In this document: piece after piece, positions 4,990-42,261 of the stretch
How positions within the stretch are numbered: position 1 is the first letter of the stretch
How the letters are laid out: every line of letters starts with the position of its first letter
Source of the DNA: Clostridiales bacterium
Lineage (GTDB): Bacteria; Bacillota; Clostridia; Monoglobales; WRBX01
DNA length: 64,000 nucleotides
Direction: 5' to 3'
Assembly: GCA_031261985.1 (NCBI GenBank)
Contig: JAISIR010000003.1
Span: 26,924 to 90,923 of the forward strand
The notes under the pieces: model-generated
The model's input: the letters and a program-made list of their open reading frames with translations, nothing else
Databases searched by the model: none
Told to the model about the DNA's origin: nothing
Program-made: the position numbers and the translations under genes

Positions 4990-5066
4990 CAAATTGCCAG
5001 CTTGTCGACAATTTGCACATAATAACTTTAGAAGCTTCAGTGGATTCATTCCACTGAAGCGTTTTT
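4990..5066 (+). repeat. Two-hairpin dispersed repeat (family H1)
   Basis: CAAATTGCCAGCTTGTCGACAATTTG hairpin followed by CTTTAGAAG plus the CTTCAGTGGA/TCCACTGAAG hairpin. Same architecture at 5133-5208, 22441-22518 (inverted), 47386-47464 and 48376-48406. Confidence 0.85.
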
Positions 5067-5132
5067 ATTTAATAAAAATATTATCCCTTGACATTTGCTG
5101 CAAAAATGTGATATAATGTAGTTATAAACATA

Positions 5133-5208
5133 CAAATTGCCAGGCAAGTCGGCAATTTGAACACAATACCTTTAGAAGTGTAGGCGGATTCATTCCGCCG
5201 GAACGTTT
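5133..5208 (+). repeat. Two-hairpin dispersed repeat (family H1)
   Basis: CAAATTGCCAGGCAAGTCGGCAATTTG followed by CCTTTAGAAG plus a GGCGGA/TCCGCC hairpin. Confidence 0.85.
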
Positions 5209-5250
5209 ATAATATAATATAATATTTTATCTGTTAGTTGGGGGATTTTT

Positions 5251-5409
5251 ATGCACGTCAAAAAAAGCATAGGTATATCGCTAGACACCGATGTTATAAC
5301 AAACATTAAAAAGCTTGCAAAAAAAGATTCGCGTCCACTCTCTCAATACATAAACCTTGTCTTGCGTAAACATTTAGAAGAGTATGCCGACGAGCTAGAT
5401 AATATCTAG
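5251..5409 (+). CDS. Small ribbon-helix-helix (CopG/Arc-like) protein, 52 aa, not in the ORF track
   Basis: ATG at 5251 after GGGGG. Encodes MHVKKSIGISLDTDVITNIKKLAKKDSRPLSQYINLVLRKHLEEYADELDNI, a beta-strand/helix/helix pattern typical of RHH DNA binders. Confidence 0.5.
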   Translation: MHVKKSIGISLDTDVITNIKKLAKKDSRPLSQYINLVLRKHLEEYADELDNI

Positions 5410-5428
5410 CCCTATCCTTTTAATTCCT

Positions 5429-6562
5429 TTGATTACTAATCCCACCCCAACGGATTCCGTTCTCACCAATACTCCCCCGCCAAAGCTAGGCCTCTATATC
5501 CATATCCCCTTTTGCCTTCGCAAATGCCATTATTGCGACTTTTTTTCGTTGTCATCATCTCCTGAATCGCGCACCAATTATATCAATTATCTTGTTAACA
5601 ATATAACAAGCTTCCCAAGCTCTCCCGCAGCACCTCACTGTAACAACGCCCTGGTAGATACTATCTTTTTTGGCGGCGGCACTCCTTCTGTTCTTTCGCC
5701 CAATCAGCTTAATTCTATCCTAACCGCCCTTCATTCCACCTTTACTATCAGCCCCTCAGCCGAAATCTCTATCGAGGTCAACCCTAAAACACACGCCGAC
5801 TATTCCGCCCTAAAATCTATCGGCTTCAACCGCCTTAGCCTTGGGCTACAGTCAGATAATAACGCCATCCTTAAACATTTAGGCCGTCTTCATACAGCCG
5901 AAGATTTTTTTGCAGAATACAATATAGCACAGCGTTATTTTGATAATATAAACATAGACCTTATGTTCGGTCTGCCACATCAAACGCTCGAATCTTGGCA
6001 ATCTACACTCAAAAATATAATCAACCTTAACCCTGCCCACATCTCGACATATTCACTTATTATCGAGCCCGGCACGCCCTTTTATAACCAAACCTTAACC
6101 CTTCCGCCCGAGGATATAGAGCGTAACATGTACTACACCGCCAGCCAAACACTTGCGCAAGCTGGGCTTAATAGGTACGAAATCTCTAACTTTTCGCACA
6201 TAAATAAAGAATGCAAACACAATTTAAAGTATTGGACGCGCCAAGATTATTTAGGCTTTGGCTCGAACGCCCATAGCATGGTAAACAATGTTAGGTACCA
6301 AAATTCATCTGAGCTTGAATATAAAACAAGTATAGAAGAAGTTGTTACCCCTAGCGAGCGTGTTAAAGAACAGATAATGCTAGGCCTGCGCTTGTCTTGC
6401 GGCGTATTAATAACACCTAAAATTCAAGGAAAATATGGTGACGCTCTGCGCAGGCAAGAACTCCTTGGCAACTTAAAAATTACTAACTCCCACGCCATTT
6501 TAACCCCCCGCGGCATAGATATTAGTAATGTTGTAATTTCAGAAATCTTGAACTTCGACTAA
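5429..6562 (+). CDS. hemW: Radical SAM heme chaperone HemW (HemN-like, oxygen-independent coproporphyrinogen oxidase family)
   Basis: 'LYIHIPFCLRKCHYCDF' CxxxCxxC radical-SAM motif, 'FFGGGTPS', and a HemN C-terminal domain. TTG start with a weak RBS. Confidence 0.8.
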   Translation: MITNPTPTDSVLTNTPPPKLGLYIHIPFCLRKCHYCDFFSLSSSPESRTNYINYLVNNITSFPSSPAAPHCNNALVDTIFFGGGTPSVLSPNQLNSILTALHSTFTISPSAEISIEVNPKTHADYSALKSIGFNRLSLGLQSDNNAILKHLGRLHTAEDFFAEYNIAQRYFDNINIDLMFGLPHQTLESWQSTLKNIINLNPAHISTYSLIIEPGTPFYNQTLTLPPEDIERNMYYTASQTLAQAGLNRYEISNFSHINKECKHNLKYWTRQDYLGFGSNAHSMVNNVRYQNSSELEYKTSIEEVVTPSERVKEQIMLGLRLSCGVLITPKIQGKYGDALRRQELLGNLKITNSHAILTPRGIDISNVVISEILNFD

Positions 6563-30517: not shown

Positions 30518-31213
30518 TTATCGCAATTTATTTATAAATTTTAACACATTTTGTTTTGCTGAGTTTTCAAAATTATCGACAATTCTCTCATTTTGTCTTT
30601 GAGCACTTGATTTAAATATTTTTTTCCTAGATGAGTTTTGTAACCGTTCTTTGGTGCGTTGTGCCATTTCCATTTCCTCTTTAGCTGCTGATATAAATTC
30701 TTCTGGGTTTTGCAAATAGTTTCTGCACTCTTTGATAAAAGCAACTTTCTCTTTTACTCTAACCACGTCATAAGAATCATGAGCTAAGCGAAAGTCATCA
30801 AATATTTTTGCAATTTCGTTTAGAATAGATACAGTCTTGTCGTTCGTTTCAGCATTCTTAACGAATCCTAACACTTTTTGTTTCTCAGAGTTTTCAAAAT
30901 TATTGACAATTCTCTCGTTTTGTCTTTGAGCACTTGATTTAAATATTTTTTTCCTAGATGAGTTTTCTAACCGTTCTTTGGTGCGTTGTGCCATTTCCAT
31001 TTCTTCTTTAGCTTTTGATATAAATTCTTCTGGGTTTTGCAAATATTCGCTACATTCTTTGACAAAATCAAGTATCCCATTTACATCATCGGCGCGATAA
31101 TAATCACTTCCTGCTATCATCATATTACCACAATATGTATAATCACACGTTGGATTGAGGCCATTAAATCTTTGTATTATTTCATTTAGAATAAATACAG
31201 CCTTATCGTCCAT
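30518..31213 (-). CDS. Protein with an internal ~107-aa tandem duplication, unknown function
   Basis: Start moved to the ATG at 31213, because the ORF-track N-terminus runs through the TTGACT-17-TATAAT promoter. Two near-identical units 'YLQNPEEFISxAKEEMEMAQRTKERLxNSSRKKIFKSSAQRQNERIV'. Confidence 0.55.
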   Translation of the reverse strand: MDDKAVFILNEIIQRFNGLNPTCDYTYCGNMMIAGSDYYRADDVNGILDFVKECSEYLQNPEEFISKAKEEMEMAQRTKERLENSSRKKIFKSSAQRQNERIVNNFENSEKQKVLGFVKNAETNDKTVSILNEIAKIFDDFRLAHDSYDVVRVKEKVAFIKECRNYLQNPEEFISAAKEEMEMAQRTKERLQNSSRKKIFKSSAQRQNERIVDNFENSAKQNVLKFINKLR

Positions 31214-31593
31214 TAGTATCATCCCCTTACTTATATTATAACAGATTTTCGCGTAAAAGTCAAGCAAAAAGATATGAATTATGTTAAATTTGTGTAAAGG
31301 TATTAAGGTAAAAAGTGCACCCCCGGTTCAAATCTGTTTTTAGGCTCTAAGTAACCCCCTAAACACTACAAATAAAAAAATGAAGAATGATAAGTGATGA
31401 ACGATAAATGTTGAATACAAAAAGTGCACTATAGCATGCCTTTCATTCATCATTTACAATTGATCATTTTTCATTGCCAAGCTTGCTTGGCACTTTTTGT
31501 TTGGTTTGGACAAAAAAGATACCCAAGAAGGTTTATAAGCAACTTTCAAAGTTTTATCAATTTTTTAATTCTTTTTTGTAGCTTGTTGGCAAT

Positions 31594-31872
31594 TTAATAG
31601 CCTCTTTCCCGATAAGAGCCATAAGGATTTTTCTTTCTCAATTCTTCGATATATTTTAATTGTGCTTTTTCTAAATCTTCTTTTTCCATTTTCTCAGTTG
31701 CCTTTTTGAAATAAGTTTCCCCTGCTTCATTATATTTTTGTGCTTTTTTTGCACTTTTGCGAGCAGATATGGCACTGCATAATGACCATATAGCACTTCC
31801 AACGGCGATATAAATAGTAATTATATCTCCTACTGTTATGTTTTCTTTCATAAATGTCATAAAACTTTCCAT
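31594..31872 (-). CDS. Small single-pass membrane protein (92 aa), island cassette A
   Basis: Start at ATG 31872, 7 nt after the AAGAGGTG of the conserved module. One TM helix 'ITIYIAVGSAIWSLCSAI' followed by a charged tail. Confidence 0.5.
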   Translation of the reverse strand: MESFMTFMKENITVGDIITIYIAVGSAIWSLCSAISARKSAKKAQKYNEAGETYFKKATEKMEKEDLEKAQLKYIEELRKKNPYGSYRERGY

Positions 31873-31877
31873 ATTAC

Positions 31878-31923
31878 TCACCTCTTACATAATTATATAT
31901 ATTTCGTCATACAAAGTCAATAC
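31878..31923 (-). promoter_or_regulatory. Conserved island promoter+RBS module, copy 1
   Basis: Minus strand reads TTGACTTTGTATGACGAAATATATATAATTATGTAAGAGGTGA (-35, 17 nt, -10, RBS). Confidence 0.75.
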
Positions 31924-32203
31924 TCAAAATGCCCCCCGTTCAAATCTGTTTTTAGGGGTGGAGAGGAACAGTGAAGTATTTTGGTTGCACCAAAAAGTGA
32001 AGCAGTTGGCTTTCAGCCAACAGTGAAGTATAGCGTGAACGCTAAATGAAGTAAAGTTTGCATAAAAATTACGAAGCAACTTCATTCGCCGATAGGCGAA
32101 CTTCACTTCGCAAGATACTTCACTTGCCCGACAGGGCAAACTTAGTTGCAATTTGCTATGCAAATTGCATGTCCCATTTGGACAAAAAAGATACCCGAGA
32201 GAT

Positions 32204-32329
32204 TTATGTTATCACGCCATGCGTCTGTTTAATTATAGTTCTATATCCTTTAACAACCCAAATCTCGCAATTCTTAGTAAAAGAAAAACTCTGTGCATAT
32301 CGAAAAATATTGCTTTTATTATTTTTCAT
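32204..32329 (-). pseudogene. 41-codon ORF behind a degenerate copy of the island module; possible decayed cassette
   Basis: MKNNKSNIFRYAQSFSFTKNCEIWVVKGYRTIIKQTHGVIT. RBS is GGAAGGGTG. The stop abuts the same GATACCCGAGAGAT junction that follows gene 37066-38616. Confidence 0.25.
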
Positions 32330-32496
32330 CACCCTTCCAAAATTATATTTAAATCGGTTTGTGAAGAAATTATAAATTTTCGTGTTTTATAATATAGCGT
32401 TCTGTTGACTTTTACATTATTATGTGCTAAAATAATAAAAAGATGTTGTCGTCATAATCGAATATTATTAAAAGTTTGATGAAGTGGAGGGCTATT

Positions 32497-33042
32497 GTGG
32501 CTAAAAGAGAGGCTATTAAAACAACACTTAATTCAATTGTGGAATATTGGGGCTCGAGGGTTGATGAATGTGATCTTAGTGTTGACTGGGCAGAAGCGGA
32601 CAGCCATTGTTGGAGGTGTGGGTGCGAAAAAAATTTAGAACGGTGTCATATAATCCCGCATTCATTACAGGGAAAGGATGAGCCTTCTAATTATGTGTTA
32701 CTATGCAAAAGATGTCATTTGGAAAATCCTAATGTCGCCGATAAGGAAATTATGTGGGATTGGCTAAAAGCATATAAAACATCTTTTTATGAAACTTTTT
32801 GGCTAATTCAAGGTTTAGAAGAATACAAACGCATATATGGAAAAAGCGTTGTTGAGGAACTCAAAAAGCTAGGAATTAAAGATAGAAATAAAGTTTTAAG
32901 CTCGTTCAAAGCTACCCATAATATGGCAAGCTTTCATTTCGGGCAACCATATTTCAACTCAGCAACTGTTGCAGGATTATTGAGGATGATGATAAAGGAA
33001 TTGGAAGCGGAAACGGAAACTATTGAGAAATGCAACGCATAA
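32497..33042 (+). CDS. Free-standing HNH endonuclease
   Basis: GTG start 6 nt after GGAGG. 'CWRCGCEKNLERCHIIPHSLQGKDEPSNYVLLCKRCH' is an HNH motif. Confidence 0.7.
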   Translation: MAKREAIKTTLNSIVEYWGSRVDECDLSVDWAEADSHCWRCGCEKNLERCHIIPHSLQGKDEPSNYVLLCKRCHLENPNVADKEIMWDWLKAYKTSFYETFWLIQGLEEYKRIYGKSVVEELKKLGIKDRNKVLSSFKATHNMASFHFGQPYFNSATVAGLLRMMIKELEAETETIEKCNA

Positions 33043-33097: not shown

Positions 33098-33910
33098 TTA
33101 TTGTTGAATAGCTTTAGTCAAGCCATGCATCCCAGCTTCAAAATCTTCTCTAAAATCAATATACTTTTTATTCTTTAATAAATGTGGGATTTCACAATCT
33201 TTTAGCAAAATAGGTATAACCTTGATTCTGTTTTCACCTATTTCACGCCAAAACATAGACTGCCATTCCGTTTTAACCCAGTTAGATTCAATAGAATTCG
33301 GAGATAGGATAACCAATATATAGTCGCTGGCATCAAGAGCTTTTGATATTTCATCGGGTATAGATTGCCCGCCACATATCTCACTATCTATCCAAGGGTC
33401 ATGCCCATCTTCTGCCAATTGAACAAATAAACTTTCTGCAAATGGCTTATCTTTTGTTGCGTGAGAGATGAAAATTTTCAAGCCTTTTTTATTGCCAAAC
33501 CTAGTTTTAACATGTCGCTCATACATTAAAGCTATAGTAAGATTAAGTTCCAATAATAAGTCTTCTTTTTGTTGCATTAATTCCTTTTCATCGCCCTCGC
33601 CAGACATAATTTTTTCGGTAATCCCCCAAATTTCATATTCTATAGATTTCATTCTATTTGAGCAAGCAGACATAGGAATAGTGTTTGTTATATTACCTTT
33701 TGGTACATAAGCAAATGTATTGCAATGCAATATATTTCCCCAATAGATAATCGCATATTGATTATGCAACATTTCACAATCTTCATCAATGCCATCTGTA
33801 CATAATTCACAAATGTCACATTCGCAAGCATCATCGTCAAAAATTCCAATTCTCCCTTTATACTCTCCTTTTATACATAAAACTGGACCATAGCTTAATT
33901 CAGAATGCAT
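33098..33910 (-). CDS. TIR-domain protein with a Cys/Asp-rich N-terminal domain
   Basis: C-terminal 'LKIFISHATKDKPFAESL...DPWIDSEICGGQSI...YILVILSPNSIESNWVKTEW' is TIR-like. The N-terminal ~130 aa contains 'DDDACECDICELCTDGIDEDCE'. Confidence 0.75.
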   Translation of the reverse strand: MHSELSYGPVLCIKGEYKGRIGIFDDDACECDICELCTDGIDEDCEMLHNQYAIIYWGNILHCNTFAYVPKGNITNTIPMSACSNRMKSIEYEIWGITEKIMSGEGDEKELMQQKEDLLLELNLTIALMYERHVKTRFGNKKGLKIFISHATKDKPFAESLFVQLAEDGHDPWIDSEICGGQSIPDEISKALDASDYILVILSPNSIESNWVKTEWQSMFWREIGENRIKVIPILLKDCEIPHLLKNKKYIDFREDFEAGMHGLTKAIQQ

Positions 33911-33948
33911 GTATTATCCTCTCTTTCGATGAGAATTATTTTAAAAAC

Positions 33949-34857
33949 TTAAACACATATTTTCGCACCTTTTTTTCTATTACATCTCCAACACAAACAT
34001 TGAAGGTTTTCCTCTACAGATAAACCACCTTTAGAAATTGGAATTATGTGGTCTATTTCTAGAAGTAGTGTGGGTTCATCTTTTATAGAAACATTACATA
34101 ACTTGCAAGCATAGTTATCTCTTTTTTTAATTTTTTCTCTTAATTGTGGAGTCATTATAACTCTTTGGTATTGAGCAGATTTTTTATATTTGATACTGTC
34201 GTCTAGCCAATGCATAAAACCCTCTAAATTATTGGGGTTGAGCTTTAAAGTGTAAGACAATCCACTATTGCCACCTGAACTTGTATAAGAGAAAACATAT
34301 TGCGGATAAATAACTGAAACTAAATCTAATTCAGTTAATCCTAACTTTTTATAAAGAGATTTTTTCAAAATTTTAATCAAAAATGGTAAATTGTTTTTAA
34401 TCTTATCAAATAAATTATTACGTTTTGTCCTAAGTAGTTCTCTCGATTCTTCATAAGAATTAAAATTATTCAGCATGTCGTTTGCATAATTACGATGCGT
34501 TTCATCTATAGGTATATTAAAATACTTACAAATATACTTATAGCCATTTAGCTGAGCATTACTAACAACAGAACGAGAACAATGATATATGTATTGTTTG
34601 TTTTCTCTACTAAAAAGCCCAGAATGTTTATAACCCCATCGGCTTTCATTTGAGATTTCTCCAACAAAAGTTTGCTTAGTTTGGCCTCCTAAAAGATTTA
34701 TGCTTAAAAAATCGGCATACTCATTCAGCTCGTTAAAATCGTTAGTTAAATCCTCTACACTTTTCTTTATGGAAGCAAATTCATCAGAATTAAAATAAAC
34801 ATTTCTATAAATGATAATACCTATCCAAACTATAAAAATTATTGCTAAAGGATTCAT
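33949..34857 (-). CDS. Membrane-anchored HNH nuclease
   Basis: N-terminal TM 'LAIIFIVWIGIIIY' and C-terminal 'CKLCNVS...LEIDHIIPISKGGLSVEENLQCLCWRCNRKKG'. Confidence 0.7.
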   Translation of the reverse strand: MNPLAIIFIVWIGIIIYRNVYFNSDEFASIKKSVEDLTNDFNELNEYADFLSINLLGGQTKQTFVGEISNESRWGYKHSGLFSRENKQYIYHCSRSVVSNAQLNGYKYICKYFNIPIDETHRNYANDMLNNFNSYEESRELLRTKRNNLFDKIKNNLPFLIKILKKSLYKKLGLTELDLVSVIYPQYVFSYTSSGGNSGLSYTLKLNPNNLEGFMHWLDDSIKYKKSAQYQRVIMTPQLREKIKKRDNYACKLCNVSIKDEPTLLLEIDHIIPISKGGLSVEENLQCLCWRCNRKKGAKICV

Positions 34858-34936
34858 GGTATTCCGCCTTTATGTTTTTGTATTTTACCGCTTAGAAATT
34901 ATAGTGAAATGAAAAATCTCAGGAGTTTTTTCATGC

Positions 34937-35521
34937 CTATTGTAATTTAAATCCATTTTGTTTGTCTGCTAATTTTGCGATTTCGGTTCTTTGAAGTTTT
35001 ATTTCTTTAAGAAATTTTTCTTCAAAAGTTTCAATAGTATGAAAATGAGCGTAATTCATTAAATTAATATGAAAATTTTGTTCTTTAATATCATCGTTGA
35101 TATCTTTATAATAAACAACTCCAGAAGCAGGTTCTTTCCTTGCGTTTCTTCTGATCTTTGTTGTACCAATAGGAACCTCATATGTTTGACCTATACCAAT
35201 TATACATTCCATGGTTTTTAATTCCTTAAGAATTCTAATTATATCGTTTTCCATGAGACTATTGATAAAGTTATCATCAAATACAATTTTTACATTTTTA
35301 GCTATTTTTCTTCCGTTATTTGTAAATTTTAACATGTAAAAAGCTCGATTCACAAAAACGACTTCTACGGTGATATAAGCCCGATTTTCTTCGTCAAATT
35401 GGCGCTTTATTTCTATAGTTTGTTCTTTAGTAGCTTTAGTGGATTTATAATTAAAAAAGCATATAAAAATTGTAGCTACTGTATAAATAAAAGTTATAAT
35501 AACATTAAGCCAATCTGCCAT
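34937..35521 (-). CDS. Single-pass membrane protein, first gene of the TIR operon
   Basis: Start at ATG 35521 after GGAAGAGGTGG. TM helix 'WLNVIITFIYTVATIFICFF'. The rest is unrecognised. Confidence 0.5.
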   Translation of the reverse strand: MADWLNVIITFIYTVATIFICFFNYKSTKATKEQTIEIKRQFDEENRAYITVEVVFVNRAFYMLKFTNNGRKIAKNVKIVFDDNFINSLMENDIIRILKELKTMECIIGIGQTYEVPIGTTKIRRNARKEPASGVVYYKDINDDIKEQNFHINLMNYAHFHTIETFEEKFLKEIKLQRTEIAKLADKQNGFKLQ

Positions 35522-35526
35522 ATCTC

Positions 35527-35570
35527 CACCTCTTCCATAATTATACATTATTCGCACTTTGATGTCAAGC
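35527..35570 (-). promoter_or_regulatory. Conserved island promoter+RBS module, copy 2 (more diverged)
   Basis: Minus strand reads TTGACATCAAAGTGCGAATAATGTATAATTATGGAAGAGGTGG. Confidence 0.7.
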
Positions 35571-35834
35571 CTCAGCTAAAATCCGCATTCAGCCTATAAC
35601 CAACTCTTAAACGCTATTTTTAAACTGCATCTTAAAAAACAAAAAAACCTGCGAGGCAGGCGTTAGAAATATATTTTTAATGGATAATGAAAAGTGGGGA
35701 AATATTAAAAACGTCGTTTAATAATTCGAAACAGCGTATTATCGCAGTTTTTGCTAAATAATCTTCCCTGTTTTCTTCTAAGGATGGCTTTATCTCACTT
35801 GGTAAAAGATATGAGAAATTTATACTTTCCCCAA

Positions 35835-36836
35835 CTAATATGGATTTTCAAGATCTAATCCATAATGATTTCCAATGCATCTATAGATACCTTCAACGGC
35901 ATTGCAAATATCTGATATATAGCTTGATATAATTTCATCTGTTATATCGATATTAATTTCAGCAGCGTGGACTATCGCATTTCTAATAGTAATTATATCA
36001 TCAATACTATCTAATAATGTATCGGAACGGGCAGGAATGGGTTTTGAAAATACAGCGTTTATATCAAGATTTTCGTTCACCATTTTATAATTGTCTATAA
36101 TAGATTTAGGTCTTTGAAAACTTAACCATTCGCTCAAAACCCATTCTACTTTTTCATTATCTTGCGAAAATGTTTCTATGTGTTGTGGAAGAATTTTTAT
36201 TTTATTTATTACTTTTTTAAATGCTTTTTTCCTGTCATCCGCAAATTTCAAAAGTACAACGAAAGTGGATTTAAGATATTTTTCCCAAGCACCAACAATA
36301 TAAGGTATAAGTAGATTGTTAAATATGGTATTTGCATTAAATTCCATAAGCCAAGGAATATTTGTATTATTACCTTCTATTCTAGTCTGATATTCGAGCA
36401 AAGCCACCTTTTTAATATTATTATCGAAAATCCACTTTTGATAGTACAACCCAACTTCTATTTCAGATTTCTCTGGTAATTCTACTCCGAGCTTAAGGTC
36501 GTCCCAATCATCTTCTTCAAATTCACCACCAAAAAAATTGCTTAAAGCTATTACGGTTTCGTGTTGATGCTTATGCTCCCAATAACTACGCCCAATACGC
36601 GTTCGCGTACAAACCGATATAACTCCATTTTCCTCGTAAAGAGTCAATTCAAGTCCAACAAGTGATTGGAATTCTTTTGCTCCAACCCACACATAACTCC
36701 CTTTGCGTTGCGGAATTTCTTCCTTAGGCACGATTTCAAAGCCATCGTATATCTCATAGTCAAGCCATTTAATAACATCTTTTACTCTTTCAATGTTTGT
36801 TCCAATAGGAAAGGTATTAGTGGTTTCATAACTCAT
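35835..36836 (-). CDS. HEPN-motif protein (ApeA/Abi-like), island cassette C
   Basis: Start moved to ATG 36836; the ORF-track N-terminus crosses the promoter module and spacer repeats. C-terminal 'IITIRNAIVHAAE' contains an Rx4H motif. Confidence 0.55.
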   Translation of the reverse strand: MSYETTNTFPIGTNIERVKDVIKWLDYEIYDGFEIVPKEEIPQRKGSYVWVGAKEFQSLVGLELTLYEENGVISVCTRTRIGRSYWEHKHQHETVIALSNFFGGEFEEDDWDDLKLGVELPEKSEIEVGLYYQKWIFDNNIKKVALLEYQTRIEGNNTNIPWLMEFNANTIFNNLLIPYIVGAWEKYLKSTFVVLLKFADDRKKAFKKVINKIKILPQHIETFSQDNEKVEWVLSEWLSFQRPKSIIDNYKMVNENLDINAVFSKPIPARSDTLLDSIDDIITIRNAIVHAAEINIDITDEIISSYISDICNAVEGIYRCIGNHYGLDLENPY

Positions 36837-36841
36837 GCTTT

Positions 36842-36887
36842 TCACCTCTTTCATAATTATATATAATTCGTCATGCGAAGTCAATAC
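36842..36887 (-). promoter_or_regulatory. Conserved island promoter+RBS module, copy 3
   Basis: Minus strand reads TTGACTTCGCATGACGAATTATATATAATTATGAAAGAGGTGA. Confidence 0.75.
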
Positions 36888-37006
36888 AAAAAAATGCGCC
36901 CCCAGTTTAAATCTGTTTTTTGGGGGTGGGCAACCCCCTAAAGCGCCCTTGCAAAAATTTGCACTTAGAAATGCGAAAAACGCCCATAAATACAGGCGTT
37001 TTTGGC

Positions 37007-37058
37007 TGGGTATCTTTTTTGTCCAAACAACTTGTCCTGTTTGGACAAAAAAGATACC
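37007..37058. terminator. Perfect 21-bp-stem palindrome between cassettes (bidirectional terminator/insulator candidate)
   Basis: GGGTATCTTTTTTGTCCAAAC, 10 nt, GTTTGGACAAAAAAGATACCC. Half copies at 31511-31531 and 32175-32197. Confidence 0.7.
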
Positions 37059-37065
37059 CGAGAGA

Positions 37066-38616
37066 TTAAGACTCTTCGTCATCGTCAACTTCATCGAAAA
37101 TGATATTAGAATTCCCTATTAAATAATCGACGCCTTCTAATCTTTCTTTCCATTTTTGTTTATTTTCTTCGCATAATTCATCATATAACACATCGACAGC
37201 ATCAGATAAATACTCACATCCATTTTTATTATCAAATATTTCGCTTATATAAGTCCCAATATTCGCACGGTCAAAATCTAATTCTTGAAAAACATTTAAA
37301 AATTCATGTTCAGGGTGTTTTTGCCCATATTTTAACAGCCAAAAGATAAGTTCTTTTTTCGATTGTTTTATTTGTAAAAATATATTATATAGTTTTTTGG
37401 ATTTTTCGCCTCTAAATACAAGACAAGCTGTTGATTCGCTTTCTAATTCGTATGCGTAAATATTAAGTTCTGAACACAAACTATACACTAGATTATAATA
37501 CGAAAAAGCTATTTTGCCCAAAGCAGTACCAAAAGCTTTTTTAATATTCTCAGAATATTCTTCTTTATTCCCACCACCTATTTTTTCTAATAATTTAAGT
37601 TCTTTGTTTATATCATCCTGTGTGCTAAATCTGGAATATCGTGCGTCATTATAGAATTGCAGCAATACGTCAAACAGGATGTTTTCATTATCCTTAAAAT
37701 CATTTTCTGCTATTTTATTTATATAATCACGAAGTCCTGTGTGATTGTGACTCATAAGCAGTCTTCTTATTCGATCTTGCTCGCTTCTTAAATCTTTGTT
37801 TTTATAATACATTAGCTCAATTATTATTTTTTGTAATCTTTCTACTCCTTGAGCTGCGAAATACAAAGCCAAAAATGGATACTCGCATAGGTATTCTTTG
37901 TTTTGAAACAAACTTTTATCATCGGGATGGAAAAATTTAATTTTACTTATCTCTTCTATTGATTTCCAAATCATTGCTCCAGAAATTTGCAACTCCTTTC
38001 TTAAAGCAAAATTCATTTCCGATAGATCTCTATCTAAATCAACTTCTATTTTTTCATCAAAATGTTCATTTTCTTCATGAGTGTAACTACCAATACTAAT
38101 TGCATAACTTAATTTTTTTGTTGCTTCTTCAAAAACAAAATTTTCTTCTTCACCGTCGCATTCATTGTGGAAAGCTGTTATTAAGTTTTCTTTTACAGAA
38201 CAAAGAGGTATCAAATTCTTCCAAAACTGTTTCCTTTCATCTTTAGACAACATATCAACCCTTGCCATTCCTTTGTAAGCAACTAGTTTTTTATTCAAAA
38301 TGTCGTCAATTACTTTCGCTGCTTTTTCTGAAATATTTTGCAACACCCAGCAAAAAGGCCAGCCTTTTAATCCGCCCCAAGATATCGGTTGAAAATCAAT
38401 GGTGCATAAATCGTCTTTAATGAGAAATGGCGATAAGTCTCCAAATACACGCCTATCAAGAATATCACCTGCTCTTATAACTATTTCATCTGAACAATTT
38501 TTCAATTCTTCAACACTCATAATTACTTCAAAAACTTCTTCGCCATACCAACCAGTGTTGAATTTTCCACTATCAAAAATAAAAGCAATATTAAGTTGTT
38601 CATTTATATTTCCCAT
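37066..38616 (-). CDS. Large Abi-like protein with a candidate Rx4H HEPN motif, island cassette D
   Basis: ATG at 38616 after GGAAGAGGTG. Central 'RIRRLLMSHNHTG' contains RLLMSH. Otherwise unrecognised. Confidence 0.45.
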   Translation of the reverse strand: MGNINEQLNIAFIFDSGKFNTGWYGEEVFEVIMSVEELKNCSDEIVIRAGDILDRRVFGDLSPFLIKDDLCTIDFQPISWGGLKGWPFCWVLQNISEKAAKVIDDILNKKLVAYKGMARVDMLSKDERKQFWKNLIPLCSVKENLITAFHNECDGEEENFVFEEATKKLSYAISIGSYTHEENEHFDEKIEVDLDRDLSEMNFALRKELQISGAMIWKSIEEISKIKFFHPDDKSLFQNKEYLCEYPFLALYFAAQGVERLQKIIIELMYYKNKDLRSEQDRIRRLLMSHNHTGLRDYINKIAENDFKDNENILFDVLLQFYNDARYSRFSTQDDINKELKLLEKIGGGNKEEYSENIKKAFGTALGKIAFSYYNLVYSLCSELNIYAYELESESTACLVFRGEKSKKLYNIFLQIKQSKKELIFWLLKYGQKHPEHEFLNVFQELDFDRANIGTYISEIFDNKNGCEYLSDAVDVLYDELCEENKQKWKERLEGVDYLIGNSNIIFDEVDDDEES

Positions 38617-38622
38617 TGATTT

Positions 38623-38668
38623 TCACCTCTTCCATAATTATATATAATTCGTCATACAAAGTCAATAC
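38623..38668 (-). promoter_or_regulatory. Conserved island promoter+RBS module, copy 4
   Basis: Minus strand reads TTGACTTTGTATGACGAATTATATATAATTATGGAAGAGGTGA. Confidence 0.75.
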
Positions 38669-39872
38669 AAATTATCGTGATTTTGGTATAATACACCGCA
38701 TTTTATCCCAAGCTTTCATTATGAGTAAATACACTAACGAACAAAAAGAAAAAGCGTTGGAACTTTATGCTTCTGGGGTAAGTGTTGCGAGCGTTGTTAA
38801 GGAATGCAAAATCCCGCGAAGCACGGTGTATGGGTGGATTTCAGCCGAAAATCTAAACGGCAATGACGAGCTTGCGTTCACTCCGAAAAACTTTCGCATG
38901 CTTAAAACAAAGGCGGACAAGTTGGAGCAGATTGTCGCTGTGCTTAAATCGTCTGATTGCACCCTTAACGCTCCATTACACGAAAAACTTAAAGTTATCA
39001 AAAAGCTGTATGGGCAATATAGTGTGCATATTTTATGCGAGGCGTTCTCAGTTAGCCGTGGGACTTTCTATAATTATCTACTACGCAACAAAAACGAAAA
39101 CACCACTTATGCAAAGCGGCGTGAGGTTTTTAGCAAACTCGTTAAAGATGTTCACGATGAGTTTAATCAGATTTTGGGTGCAAAGAAAATCACGGCGGTA
39201 CTAAATGAGCTAGGGCACAGGACGACTGAGAAATATGTGCGAAGCATTATGCAGGATATGGGGCTTGCGAGCATTCGGCAGGGGGCAAAAGCATTTTACC
39301 ACAAGGAACAATCAAAGGCAAAAAATCATCTAAATCAAAATTTCAAGGTGGACACCCCTAACGAGGTTTGGGTTAGCGATGTTAGTTTCTTCCATTTGCA
39401 CAAGCACACATATTACATTTGCGTGATTATCGACCTTTTCGCTCGAAAAGTTGTGAGTCATAAAGTGTCGCACAAAAACAGCACACAACTTACAAAATCA
39501 ACTTTTAAGCAAGCGTATTTAACACGAAAGCCCAAAGATGGTTTGATTTTCCATACCGATCAAGGCTCAAATTATCGCTCATTCACTTTTATGAGCTATC
39601 TAAAAGAGTTAGGCGTTACGCAATCGTTTTCGAGGGCTCATATTCCTTACGATAATTCTGTTGCGGAGGCGTTCTTTTCGTCTTTGAAGCAAGAAGATCT
39701 TTATCGCCATAAGTTCAAAACCGAAAAAGATTTCCGCAAAGCCGTCGATGAATATATTGTTTTTTATAACACCAAACGCCCACATACTTATAACAAGAAT
39801 AAAACGCCTGTTAAGGTGGAGGATGAGTTTTATAGCAATAATGAGAAGAATTCACAATAACAATATAGATGT
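38669..39872 (+). mobile_element. IS3-family insertion sequence (ends approximate)
   Basis: Contains the transposase ORF and fills exactly the gap between the copy-4 module and the stop of gene 39873-41279. Terminal inverted repeats are only weakly visible. Confidence 0.55.
38721..39860 (+). CDS. IS3-family transposase (HTH + DDE/rve), single uninterrupted ORF
   Basis: HTH region 'IPRSTVYGWI'. rve core 'VWVSDVSFF...YICVIIDLFARKVV...HTDQGSNYRS...YDNSVAEAFFSSLKQE'. Start set at ATG 38721. Confidence 0.8.
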   Translation: MSKYTNEQKEKALELYASGVSVASVVKECKIPRSTVYGWISAENLNGNDELAFTPKNFRMLKTKADKLEQIVAVLKSSDCTLNAPLHEKLKVIKKLYGQYSVHILCEAFSVSRGTFYNYLLRNKNENTTYAKRREVFSKLVKDVHDEFNQILGAKKITAVLNELGHRTTEKYVRSIMQDMGLASIRQGAKAFYHKEQSKAKNHLNQNFKVDTPNEVWVSDVSFFHLHKHTYYICVIIDLFARKVVSHKVSHKNSTQLTKSTFKQAYLTRKPKDGLIFHTDQGSNYRSFTFMSYLKELGVTQSFSRAHIPYDNSVAEAFFSSLKQEDLYRHKFKTEKDFRKAVDEYIVFYNTKRPHTYNKNKTPVKVEDEFYSNNEKNSQ

Positions 39873-41279
39873 CTATTTAGGTTTTTTCTTACTGTCTTTA
39901 TTGGTTTTGAATCTATTTTTATAATTAAAATAGAACATAAGTAATTCTTCTGGTGGCAGCTCGTTAATTTGTAAGGTTCTAGCGAAACTTCTCATTTGCC
40001 GCAGTAAAGCTTGTTCCGAAGGCGGAGAGTTTCTGTATTCTTCTTTTGAAAGTTCGTATTCCATTGCTTCATAAATACATTTTGCAGTAACAGGCGGAAC
40101 CCCCTGACTTTGCTTTAATGCAGTGTTATGCCAATTGCGGCAATACTTTACCCAAACATCATTTACATTTTTTATTTCAACTAAATTGTTAAACTTTTCT
40201 AACATATCAGGCAATTTCATATTTTTAGGATTAGTGCAATAATAAACAACTTTTTCCAAATTGCCGTTTTCTAAACTTTTACAAATGCAATCAAATATGT
40301 GAGAGTCGTTTTGGGGATTCACACCTATTATAAAAAGTGCACCTTCTATATTTTCAAACTCTGAAAAATGGTAATCAGACCAACCTTGCAATTCTGGATG
40401 CTCAATTGCTATATTTGGAGTTAATTGCAAGTAATGTTCGTCTGGAAATATTGTTTTATACAAGTCGACTATTCCTCTTTTGAGATTTTCCTGTTGGGTT
40501 CCAGTGCCACCCTTTAACTTATTATAATAATTATTAGCATTTTGAAAATCTTTAGCAAATGTATATTTTTTATTCCCTGAATAGCTTAATAAGGCATTGC
40601 AAAAACAATGTTCGAAATTTAGTGGTATATAAATCGAAGCCCCATCTTGTCGTCTTGCAAAGCCAGGAATAGTATGAGGATTTTCGCTATCTGGCAAAAC
40701 AGAATAGTCTCCATGCAAGTGATAAACAGGGACTTCCGTAATTTTTTCAATATTATTATCATAATTAAGTGTGAATATTTGTTCAAATTGTTTGAAAAAT
40801 TTCTTAGCTGTCATCATCGTTTTATATGTTTCTTGTAATCTGCCGTCACAATATATCGCATCTAAAATCATGCGTTCAACACCTTGAAGTGTAGCTCGCT
40901 TTTGAGAAATAACATCTGGGTTATCAATATAGAAAAACTCAAAAACTAAAAGCCAATCTTCTATCCCAATTTGGTCTGGCTTAGAAATTGGTTCATTATA
41001 TGTTTTTTTAAACTCAGTTAAAGCACTTTTTAAATTTTTTGGTACTTTTTCATCATATTTACCATTTATCGCATTGTTAATTAGAGGAACAAAGTTGTTA
41101 AATATATTCACTATGCCATCGCCTTCAATAGCCGCCTCTGAAGTTTCGTCTGCTTTGAATAAATCATTATATAAATTTTGCTTAGCTTTTGCAATCATAC
41201 GGATAAAAATCCATTTTGAAAGAAAATCCTTACCACCAAACTCAATATTAATGCCATTGCCTACTAATAAATTCTTCAT
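39873..41279 (-). CDS. AbiH-like / SIR2-like abortive-infection candidate, island cassette E
   Basis: Start at ATG 41279 after GGAAGAGGTG. N-terminal 'LLVGNGINIEFGG' resembles the AbiH 'IIGNGFDLAHG' start, and there is an 'YHLHGDY' motif. Confidence 0.4.
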   Translation of the reverse strand: MKNLLVGNGINIEFGGKDFLSKWIFIRMIAKAKQNLYNDLFKADETSEAAIEGDGIVNIFNNFVPLINNAINGKYDEKVPKNLKSALTEFKKTYNEPISKPDQIGIEDWLLVFEFFYIDNPDVISQKRATLQGVERMILDAIYCDGRLQETYKTMMTAKKFFKQFEQIFTLNYDNNIEKITEVPVYHLHGDYSVLPDSENPHTIPGFARRQDGASIYIPLNFEHCFCNALLSYSGNKKYTFAKDFQNANNYYNKLKGGTGTQQENLKRGIVDLYKTIFPDEHYLQLTPNIAIEHPELQGWSDYHFSEFENIEGALFIIGVNPQNDSHIFDCICKSLENGNLEKVVYYCTNPKNMKLPDMLEKFNNLVEIKNVNDVWVKYCRNWHNTALKQSQGVPPVTAKCIYEAMEYELSKEEYRNSPPSEQALLRQMRSFARTLQINELPPEELLMFYFNYKNRFKTNKDSKKKPK

Positions 41280-41284
41280 TTCAA

Positions 41285-41329
41285 TCACCTCTTCCATAAT
41301 TATATATAATTCGACTTATAAAGTCAATC
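41285..41329 (-). promoter_or_regulatory. Conserved island promoter+RBS module, copy 5
   Basis: Minus strand reads TTGACTTTATAAGTCGAATTATATATAATTATGGAAGAGGTGA. Confidence 0.75.
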
Positions 41330-41588
41330 TCATAAAAACAAAACTTCGCAAAAGGGGTAAGCGAATTTTTACGGTAATAATCATCGGATTTCTAAAATCT
41401 ATTTCAGACATTTGTGTTCAAAAGTAAACTTTTTTGCGATTTAGTTCCAAAATTTTCACTGTTTTGTATAAGTGTCCGAAAGTTGTTTATAACACGGAAA
41501 GATTAAACCCCTCATTAATTCAAGCGAAAATAAAAATAGCGACTGCACTTTTGGACACGGGGGTTCAAAAGTGAGCCACTAATTCACT

Positions 41589-41662
<74 letters not shown>

Positions 41663-41665
41663 GTG

Positions 41666-41880
41666 TCGTCGCAACTGCTACGCTCAGCTATTTTTTGCCA
41701 AAAGCGCAAAAACGTCGCTTATGCTCCGAGTTGCTCCTCTTATCCCACAAAACGGAAATCGCGTTTTGCGGGAGCCCTATGCGCTTACGCGCATAGCAAC
41801 TGCTACGCTTAGCTTATTTTCACAAAAAGCGTGAAAATATCACCTTGCTCCGCGTTACCTCTCTTTATAATAATATGTAA
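41666..41880 (-). repeat. Two-unit modular hairpin repeat immediately 5' of tRNA-Cys (family U)
   Basis: On the minus strand, 41666-41784 matches 48528-48646 with about 9 differences in 119 nt by eye. Units consist of a GGGCTCCC hairpin, ATAAGAGGAGCAAC, a TTTTTGCG..GCAAAAA hairpin and AGCAGTTGC. Confidence 0.85.
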
Positions 41881-41978
41881 TAGAGAGGACTAAGATTCCT
41901 TTTAAAAAAATAGAACGGAACAAAACGCTCCACCCTAAATTATATATCGCTGCAAAAAAGTGGATATTTAGCAGCTTT

Positions 41979-42053
41979 TGGAGCGGAAGACGAGATTCGA
42001 ACTCGCGACTTTCACCTTGGCAAGGTGACACTCTACCACTGAGTCACTCCCGC
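41979..42053 (-). tRNA. tRNA-Gly (anticodon GCC)
   Basis: Reverse complement is GCGGGAGTGACTCAGTGGTAGAGTGTCACCTTGCCAAGGTGAAAGTCGCGAGTTCGAATCTCGTCTTCCGCTCCA. Confidence 0.9.
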
Positions 42054-42140
42054 ATGACCAATTGCATAAAACATTATAGCATAAAGATGATACTTTGTCA
42101 ACCCCTTTTAAAAAAATATTACCAAATTTAATTAAAAGTA

Positions 42141-42169
42141 TTGACATATTTAATATTTTGTAGTATAAT
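42141..42169 (+). promoter_or_regulatory. Sigma-A type promoter of tRNA(CAU)
   Basis: TTGACA, 17 nt, TATAAT. The spacer ...TTTTGTAG matches the tRNA-Lys promoter. Confidence 0.7.
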
Positions 42170-42184
42170 GGTTAAGGTCAATGT

Positions 42185-42261
42185 GCACCTTTAGCTCAGT
42201 TGGTTAGAGCAACCGGCTCATAACCGGTTTGTCCGGGGTTCAAGTCCCTGAAGGTGCACCA
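42185..42261 (+). tRNA. tRNA with CAU anticodon (Met, or Ile2 if lysidine-modified)
   Basis: GCACCTTTAGCTCAGTTGGTTAGAGCAACCGGCTCATAACCGGTTTGTCCGGGGTTCAAGTCCCTGAAGGTGCACCA. The Ile-like body leaves the identity ambiguous. Confidence 0.85.

Follow-up and report, generated by a model that had tools for sequence, protein, structure and literature searches.

In SpbK, a TIR NADase encoded by a single gene, a phage portal protein clusters and activates the TIR domains (PMC12847820), and several defence systems that consist of one TIR protein have been validated, in E. coli (PMC11350192). A three-gene arrangement is also on record, in the P2-like phage AC1, where a locus encoding a TIR protein and two transmembrane (TM) proteins was validated as a unit; the published description of its proteins gives transmembrane helices only, and no nuclease (PMC9122126). 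Here we analyse three adjacent minus-strand genes, g1 (34937-35521), g2 (33949-34857) and g3 (33098-33910), in a 64,000-nucleotide stretch of a Clostridiales metagenome-assembled genome (contig JAISIR010000003.1, positions 26,924 to 90,923; hereafter the window), where they lie in a low-GC, tRNA-adjacent defence island. The genes encode a 194-aa single-pass membrane protein, a predicted 302-aa membrane-tethered HNH nuclease and a 270-aa single-chain TIR protein, respectively. An initial annotation of this DNA had proposed them as one Thoeris-like three-gene system, and had recognised no described combination of a TIR with membrane proteins of this kind; the AC1 locus shows that such a combination had already been validated, and the proposed single system did not survive a survey of 163 g2 loci, 84 g3-related loci and seven g1 loci. 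We consider it likely that g1, g2 and g3 are three independent single-gene modules stacked in one cassette, and not parts of one system.

The genomic contexts of the g2 family were collected as 83 genomic loci (the best 80 plus three metagenomic contexts, with 8 kb of flank, 1.05 Mb and 7,076 open reading frames (ORFs) in all) and 80 viral loci with 5 kb of flank. Hidden Markov models (HMMs) of the g1 and g3 families match 0 of the 83 genomic loci at E<=1e-3, and no TIR is found in them even at E<=10; the HMM used detects TIR domains in different architectures, on which it was not trained, at 1e-26 to 1e-46. The viral loci give the same result, with g1- or g3-family genes in 0 of 80. The closest g2 relatives, with 69-76% identity and seven contexts (L001, L011, L012, L018-L021), have no g1 or g3 relative beside them. 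The 432 neighbouring proteins of the genomic g2 loci fall into 395 clusters. Among the 77 same-strand neighbours within 200 bp are integrases (eight), XRE-type helix-turn-helix regulators (five) and ImmA/IrrE peptidases (four), and TIR is not among the recurrent Pfam families listed for these close neighbours.

The survey from the side of g3 agrees with that from the side of g2. A g2-family gene is present in 0 of the 84 g3-related loci, 80 of which come from metagenomes; about 25 of these 80 are full-length, at 27-42% identity. The 85 neighbours of 23 full-length or near-full-length g3 relatives (one of them split into two ORFs) form 67 clusters, none of which is common across lineages, the only shared clusters being those between near-identical contigs. 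Upstream of the closest g3 relative (P0122, 53% identity) lies a 302-aa gene that is unrelated to g2; this gene, of the same length as g2, was considered as a membrane-anchored HNH gene and rejected by BLASTP (best E = 0.06). Other g3 relatives stand beside a gene with a weak HSDR_N_2 match and Tex, stand alone, or lie near weak RelE-type and weak HicB-like genes. For g1, an HNH or TIR neighbour occurs in 0 of seven contexts. Full-length relatives in the same database number more than 667 for g2, 30 for g1 and 13 for g3. The initial annotation had named a lack of co-occurrence in other genomes as grounds for rejecting its proposal; checked in both directions, the genes are not found together in any of the three sets of loci, and the trio is not a conserved system.

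The arrangement at the locus is operon-like. ORF analysis agrees with the initial annotation on the three minus-strand genes, their positions and sizes and the gaps of 79 and 38 bp, and the one promoter module, the absence of an internal terminator and the defence-island setting that it described are also borne out; each downstream gene has a ribosome-binding site (RBS) of its own. The promoter/RBS module (35520-35574, minus strand) is the sole copy in the island that serves g1-g2-g3. Its -35 box TTGACA (35568-35563) and -10 box TATAAT (35545-35540), 17 nucleotides apart, match the consensus at 12 of 12 positions, and are followed by the strong RBS GGAAGAGGTGGAG and then by the g1 ATG, from which the 194 residues are counted; the mechanical ORF of g1 opens at a GTG at 35557. 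The g1-g2 spacer (34858-34936, minus strand) carries the g2 RBS AAAGGCGGAA, and the g2-g3 spacer (33911-33948, minus strand) carries the g3 RBS AGAGAGGA. No terminator is found between the genes by a consensus scan of both spacers, no copy of the promoter module lies in the g1-g2 spacer, and neither spacer folds better than shuffled sequence (minimum free energy -7.7 kcal/mol and z = 0.07 for g1-g2; z = -1.09 for g2-g3). An intrinsic terminator of the upstream HEPN cassette (35647-35661, minus strand; GCCTGC-CTC-GCAGGT followed by a T-run) is predicted to shield the g1 promoter from upstream transcription. Because the module precedes g1 alone, the three genes are assigned to one shared cassette, and they are probably co-transcribed from that module. 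Their GC contents are 27.0, 28.9 and 33.7%, and the differences in GC and in GC at third codon positions are slight and not decisive. Hydropathy scanning gives one N-terminal TM helix in g1, one in g2 and none in g3, in accordance with the initial annotation.

The g2 protein consists of a TM helix (aa 4-22; 34792-34848), a family-specific middle domain of about 210 aa (aa 23-235; 34153-34791) and a C-terminal HNH domain (aa 236-300; 33958-34152), all encoded on the minus strand. Pfam HNH matches aa 251-298 (2.3e-12; 47.3 bits, cutoff 21.4), so that this call of the initial annotation is upheld. The features of PF01844, i.e., the His, the Asn and the Cys4 site of the beta-beta-alpha-Me fold, are present in g2. 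In an alignment of 32 sequences of this membrane-anchored HNH (TM-HNH) family, C251, C254, N284, C289, C292 and N293 are invariant, and D269 and H270 are nearly so; C251, C254, C289 and C292 are the predicted zinc ligands, and H270 (codon 34048-34050, minus strand) is the catalytic-type His of the HNH. The family is conserved end to end, with the motifs CSR...CKYF and YTSSGGNS in the middle domain. The structure model of g2 is confident (predicted local distance difference test (pLDDT) score 84), and in Foldseek searches of PDB and BFVD only its last ~65-80 residues, i.e., the HNH, are matched, by the HNH domains of Gme HNH, McrA and Cap5. A profile search against PDB sequences likewise returns HNH matches only, and the HNH profiles matched in PADLOC are those of PtuB, ZorE and REase_II. 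Apart from the HNH, nothing in g2 is assigned to a named family by Pfam, NCBIfam, PHROGs or PADLOC, and no SAVED, SLOG, Macro or CARF match is found by profile or fold search. The middle region is as unrecognised as the initial annotation had described it, and for none of the three genes do NCBIfam and PHROGs name a whole-protein family.

The middle domain searched alone, exhaustively, yields 164 representatives at 50% clustering. Of 32 representatives that look complete, 31 have the HNH directly behind this domain, and the remaining one is truncated; the middle domain is therefore taken as a fixed partner of the nuclease. For the same reason, a role as a swappable sensor was rejected. Members with a single TM helix have on average 0.52 Lys/Arg in a short uncharged N-terminal flank vs 2.24 past the helix, and members with two TM helices have a basic N-terminus. 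Since the flank charges of the one-TM and two-TM variants agree on a cytoplasmic C-terminus, the nuclease domain is predicted to face the cytoplasm. Some members carry C-terminal additions after a Pro-rich linker (L184 1406-3070; L096 7968-10190; P0275). Two Psychrobacter proteins of the family have three to six repeats of Ltp, the superinfection-exclusion lipoprotein, other members have SHOCT, and in one protein of 896 aa the HNH is followed by RNase_T, BRCT and Lsr2 DNA-binding domains. An extracellular orientation, like that of EndA, was considered and rejected on the flank charges of the two variants and on the RNase_T/BRCT/Lsr2 fusion.

At least 439 matches to the TM-HNH family are found in a scan of one genome per species (~185,000 species-representative genomes), with hosts in Bacillota, Bacteroidota, Pseudomonadota, Bifidobacterium and Saccharibacteria, and IMG/VR holds 148 relatives. 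Of the 80 viral loci kept, 57 have the gene no more than 3.7 kb from the contig end (median 1.7 kb), and a same-strand tyrosine integrase lies within 1 kb in 33 of 80. Five plasmids carry full-length copies. In the Mycobacterium prophage prophiGD13-2, the TM-HNH gene belongs to a block of reverse orientation, with the replication genes on one side and the packaging genes on the other, and is distinct from the HNH gene adjacent to the terminase; defence genes expressed in lysogens are often located in such blocks. The family is mostly cargo of prophages, integrative and conjugative elements (ICEs) and plasmids, placed beside an integrase. No literature on membrane-anchored or transmembrane HNH defence genes was found under the names searched. 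Most likely, g2 would protect the host of its carrier element, either by cutting foreign DNA at the membrane as it enters or replicates or, as an abortive effector, by killing the cell once activated. That the TM-HNH family by itself is an undescribed nuclease of prophages, widespread and acting in defence or exclusion as a single gene, has, in our estimate, an even chance of being correct.

In g3, Pfam TIR_2 matches aa 146-262 (3.1e-30; 105.6 bits, cutoff 28), which bears out the TIR call of the initial annotation. The AlphaFold model (pLDDT 79.6) comprises, on the minus strand, a beta-barrel N-domain (~aa 1-75; 33686-33910) with strands at residues 8-12, 21-24, 52-56 and 66-70, a helical hairpin (aa 80-137; 33500-33673) and the TIR domain (aa 145-269; 33104-33478). 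The Cys/Asp-rich N-terminal stretch noted in the initial annotation is present; it interrupts the barrel as a variable insert, which is missing from two members of the family and so is not a constant feature. The motif W211-x3-E215 is invariant across 12 g3-family sequences (Glu215 codon 33266-33268, minus strand). Against PDB sequences, the g3-family profile matches the NAD+-cleaving bacterial TIRs BtTir, AbTir and Cat1 at 1e-17 to 1e-19, and it matches SpbK across the linker and the TIR at 4.7e-6. Foldseek with the g3 model against PDB returns the TIR domain only, and the N-terminal barrel with its Cys-rich insert has no Pfam match and no PDB fold match.

PADLOC assigns g3 and ten relatives tested to PDC-S66 as their top match (4.8e-19 for g3; 11 of 11, 1e-14 to 1e-23), with alignments limited to about positions 105-240 of 282; the N-terminal ~100 positions of the profile are never aligned. 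The PDC entries of PADLOC are uncharacterised 'phage defence candidate' families (PMC12482510). The PADLOC spbK model scores 0.0021 on g3 across 32 residues, Pfam ThsB_TIR falls just under its cutoff (20.9 bits vs 21.2), and the best of the PADLOC ThsB models (8.6e-7) stands behind PDC-S66. Because its architecture and profile matches resemble SpbK and the validated one-protein TIR systems, we infer that g3 would be an autonomous single-chain sensor-effector TIR protein of SpbK-like architecture with a new N-terminal domain. By analogy with SpbK and the validated single-protein systems, binding of a phage component, or oligomerisation, would be the task of the barrel and the helical hairpin; either event would cluster the TIR domains, leading to NAD+ cleavage via Glu215 and abortive infection. 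In one lineage (L009 4575-5537; L010 112-1074), the g3-type protein is split into two adjoining ORFs, one for an N-domain of 120 aa (HMM 2e-22) and one for a linker-plus-TIR protein of 178 aa, which are either the result of a frameshift or a genuine two-gene version.

The third protein, g1, has a polar and highly conserved TM helix (aa 5-23; 35453-35509, minus strand), in which T10, Y13, A16-T17-I18 and C21, and beyond it N24 and S27, are invariant. No known domain is found in g1 with Pfam or PADLOC, its profile gives nothing credible against PDB sequences (best E = 0.079), and the search of phages gives no match, the viral contigs containing N-terminal fragments only. In three Firmicutes conjugative elements (L005, L015 and L100, at ~5001-5640 in each), a g1 relative occupies an opposite-strand cargo slot between Maff2/TrbL and the coupling protein (T4CP) of the type IV secretion system (T4SS); in one of the three ICEs it is entirely alone in that slot, and in L015 it is followed by an overlapping AbiJ/Abi_C gene. 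Two unrelated type I restriction-modification (R-M) operons carry a g1 relative between hsdS and hsdM, one on a wolf-gut metagenome scaffold (L006 5001-5612), where it overlaps both genes, and one on the Pusillibacter faecalis megaplasmid pMM59_01 (L185 5992-6567). Another relative adjoins an IS3 element. Because its relatives recur within type I R-M operons, in front of AbiJ and in the cargo slots of ICEs, g1 is probably an independent membrane protein of an abortive-infection (Abi) or exclusion type; of the assignments made here, this is the weakest.

Several points weigh against reading the three genes as independent. One promoter and short terminator-free spacers are the look of real multi-gene systems, and functional coupling is possible at this locus. 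The survey covers the best 80 loci of each scan, out of at least 439 genome matches for g2 and 268 metagenome matches for g3, and the g1 sample of seven independent contexts is small. In addition, 'defence' as a label for the g1 and g2 families comes from guilt by association, and no literature on these families was found under the names searched. The same single promoter, tight spacing and lack of internal terminators would be expected of a genuine, lineage-restricted signalling system in which the TIR protein, on infection, makes an NAD-derived messenger that activates the membrane-tethered HNH effector, g1 being a co-factor in the membrane. Such a system has a precedent for its gene content in AC1, where a TIR and two membrane proteins form one three-gene unit (PMC9122126), and a precedent for a signal-activated HNH effector in CBASS Cap5, which matches the g2 HNH by fold. 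However, the lack of co-occurrence across the 163 g2 loci, 84 g3-related loci and seven g1 contexts extends to the closest relatives, the fold matches of g2 end at the HNH and include no signal-binding domain (SAVED, SLOG, Macro or CARF), the middle domain is never apart from its HNH, and g3 has the complete architecture of autonomous single-gene TIR proteins. We regard this signalling scheme as improbable. A variant in which the trio was recently assembled as a lineage-specific signalling system, despite its non-conserved arrangement, appears slightly less probable still, and the wider statement that the trio, or the g2 and g3 pair, forms a lineage-specific signalling system is given a comparably low weight. 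A prophage nuclease is a less novel reading of the TM-HNH gene and a far likelier one than the lineage-specific signalling trio.

A pairwise dependency that bypasses TIR signalling, e.g., g1 gating or localising g2 in a complex while g3 acts independently, would fit the N-terminal anchors of both proteins, and the translational coupling of g1 relatives to other defence genes, which they overlap (AbiJ in one case, hsdS and hsdM in another), would fit an accessory role. Yet no g1-family gene lies in the fetched flanks of any of the 163 g2 loci, the g1 relative that is alone in its ICE slot has no partner there, and the 79-bp spacer between g1 and g2 has no translational coupling, so that we hold such a pair to be very unlikely. 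Some or all of the genes might also serve purposes other than anti-phage defence, the TM-HNH protein as a toxin or addiction factor or as a DNA-processing factor of its own element, and g1 as an entry-exclusion protein of conjugation. The integrase-adjacent cargo positions of most g2 relatives, at times preceded by XRE/ImmA regulators, are consistent with this, as are the g1 relatives among T4SS genes in three ICEs and the experimentally uncharacterised state of both families. On the other side, the island that contains g1 and g2 here is chromosomal, is made up of defence-type genes and lacks an integrase and a T4SS, members of the g1 family lie inside two type I R-M operons and in front of AbiJ, and the g2 relative of prophiGD13-2 sits in its reverse-oriented block apart from the terminase-adjacent HNH. 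Non-defence roles are accordingly judged unlikely, though somewhat less so than either form of coupling, and three independent single-gene modules remain the reading we prefer.

The island that holds these modules extends from ~30.5 to 41.4 kb, with a GC content of 29-34% compared with 38.6% for the window, and its borders are formed by a tRNA-Cys/Gly/Met cluster with cysS at one end and a DUF2157/GDYXXLXY pair at the opposite end. Between 31300 and 41340 it is an array of expression cassettes. The ~55-nucleotide promoter/RBS module (consensus TTGACTTTGTATGACGAATTATATATAATTATGGAAGAGGTGA) has six copies, at 31872-31926, 32322-32376, 35520-35574, 36836-36890, 38617-38671 and 41279-41333, and five of the six stand directly ahead of a different minus-strand gene; no match to the module is found in viral contigs or in any of the 185 fetched loci. 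Hairpin and spacer modules recur behind most cassette genes, namely the hairpin GCCCCC.GTT.AAATCTGTTTTT.GGGG (31310-31363, 31931-31958 and 36889-36942) and the repeat TTTGGACAAAAAAGATACCCGAGAGATT (31497-31528, 32152-32204 and 37015-37067). This arrangement could serve the exchange of cassettes by recombination. An apparently empty cassette lies at 31926-32376, where the spacer and hairpin modules come immediately after a degenerate promoter-module copy (64% identity), and the ORFs within it are spurious ones that cross the repeats.

The neighbouring cassettes encode a RiboL-PSP HEPN protein (9e-11), an unannotated 516-aa protein and a PDC-S21-like protein. Of the defence neighbours proposed in the initial annotation, the HEPN gene thus holds; the AbiH-like call does not, its 474-aa protein (39873-41297) matching PADLOC PDC-S21 (2.7e-9) and having no Pfam match at E<=0.001. 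The mechanical 419-aa ORF of the HEPN gene (35835-37094) crosses repeat modules, and its real start is most likely the ATG after the promoter module, at ~36824-36836 (MSYETTN.../MKEVKSMSY...), which gives a protein of ~330 aa. The convergent free-standing HNH gene next to g3 is real, as had been proposed (ORF 32476-33042, plus strand; HNH_5 2.6e-6, HNH 5.4e-6). It has a promoter-like site TTGACT-17-TAAAAT with an upstream TG at 32405-32433, and its PADLOC matches are weak only (PDC-M01B 8.9e-4, DpdF 1.3e-3). An IS3-family transposase gene (38616-39860, plus strand; NCBIfam 3.5e-90) is inserted between two cassettes, and the first ~35 codons of its ORF are read-through of the reverse-complemented promoter module. 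Near the 30.5-kb end of the island, a 249-aa ORF (30518-31267) contains a 252-nucleotide internal direct duplication of 86% identity (30528-30779 and 30855-31106), giving a protein with two ~84-aa repeats. The tRNA-Cys, tRNA-Gly and tRNA-Met cluster spans 41589-42261, and a pair of 42-nucleotide direct repeats (41671-41712 and 41796-41837) lies between its tRNA genes; these repeats may mark an integration or hotspot boundary.

With the trio read as separate modules, a tempting false positive is removed, in that operon-like packing within a defence island does not equal a multi-gene system, and reciprocal co-occurrence tests separate stacked genes from true systems cheaply. Were the initial proposal true, a membrane-tethered HNH switched by a TIR would be a new effector class for Thoeris-like immunity. 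The most worthwhile lead is the TM-HNH family, which is well defined and may, as a candidate, represent a new nuclease that acts as a single gene against phages or in superinfection exclusion; it occurs across several phyla, has an unannotated 210-aa domain and is experimentally uncharacterised. The g1 family is of interest because it is found repeatedly inside type I R-M operons and in the cargo slots of ICEs, and g3 as an SpbK/PDC-S66-like TIR protein with a predicted new N-terminal sensor domain.

Compared with known systems, the locus resembles Thoeris in that a TIR gene with a catalytic-type Glu adjoins putative effector genes in a defence island and gives weak ThsB matches. Unlike Thoeris, it has no ThsA-like gene, no SLOG, Macro, SAVED or SIR2 domain is found in g1 or g2 with Pfam, PADLOC or NCBIfam, the adjacency of g3 and g2 is not conserved, and the top PADLOC match of g3 is PDC-S66 rather than ThsB. 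Judged by profile matches, membership in Thoeris fails for want of a ThsA-type effector or signal-binding domain and of conserved co-occurrence. The AC1 locus, which we take to be the system known in DefenseFinder as 'Rst_2TM_1TM_TIR', is the nearest published analogue of the proposed trio arrangement, having a TIR gene with two membrane-protein genes; it differs in that the trio here is not conserved and g2 contains a nuclease. In PADLOC, g1 has no match and g2 matches HNH models only, in a copy of the database whose content of AC1 models is unconfirmed.

The closest likeness of g3 is to SpbK, the single-gene TIR abortive-infection protein of ICEBs1, and the other single-protein TIR systems, and to AbTir and BtTir (profile matches at 1e-18 to 1e-19); shared features are a length of ~270-290 aa in one chain, a region other than TIR at the N-terminus, a helical linker and an NADase-type TIR at the C-terminus; like the single-gene TIR proteins, it has no conserved partner gene. 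It is unlike SpbK in its N-terminal barrel with a Cys-rich insert and in its score of 0.002 with the PADLOC spbK model. PDC-S66 is similar in profile length (282) and in its C-terminal TIR, and is unlike g3 in the N-terminal ~100 positions; because these positions never match, the sensor domain of g3 is predicted to differ from that of PDC-S66. By profile coverage, g3 is a full-length member of neither the PDC-S66 nor the spbK profile. Finally, g2 shares a canonical Cys4 HNH with McrA (type IV), CBASS Cap5 (SAVED-HNH), PtuB (Septu) and ZorE (Zorya), whereas the match to all of these is limited to its ~65-aa HNH. For Cap5, the fold match spans 66-83 columns of the HNH only, and g2 has no SAVED profile match. 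In place of SAVED or the DNA-modification readers of these proteins, g2 has a TM anchor and a family-specific 210-aa middle domain.

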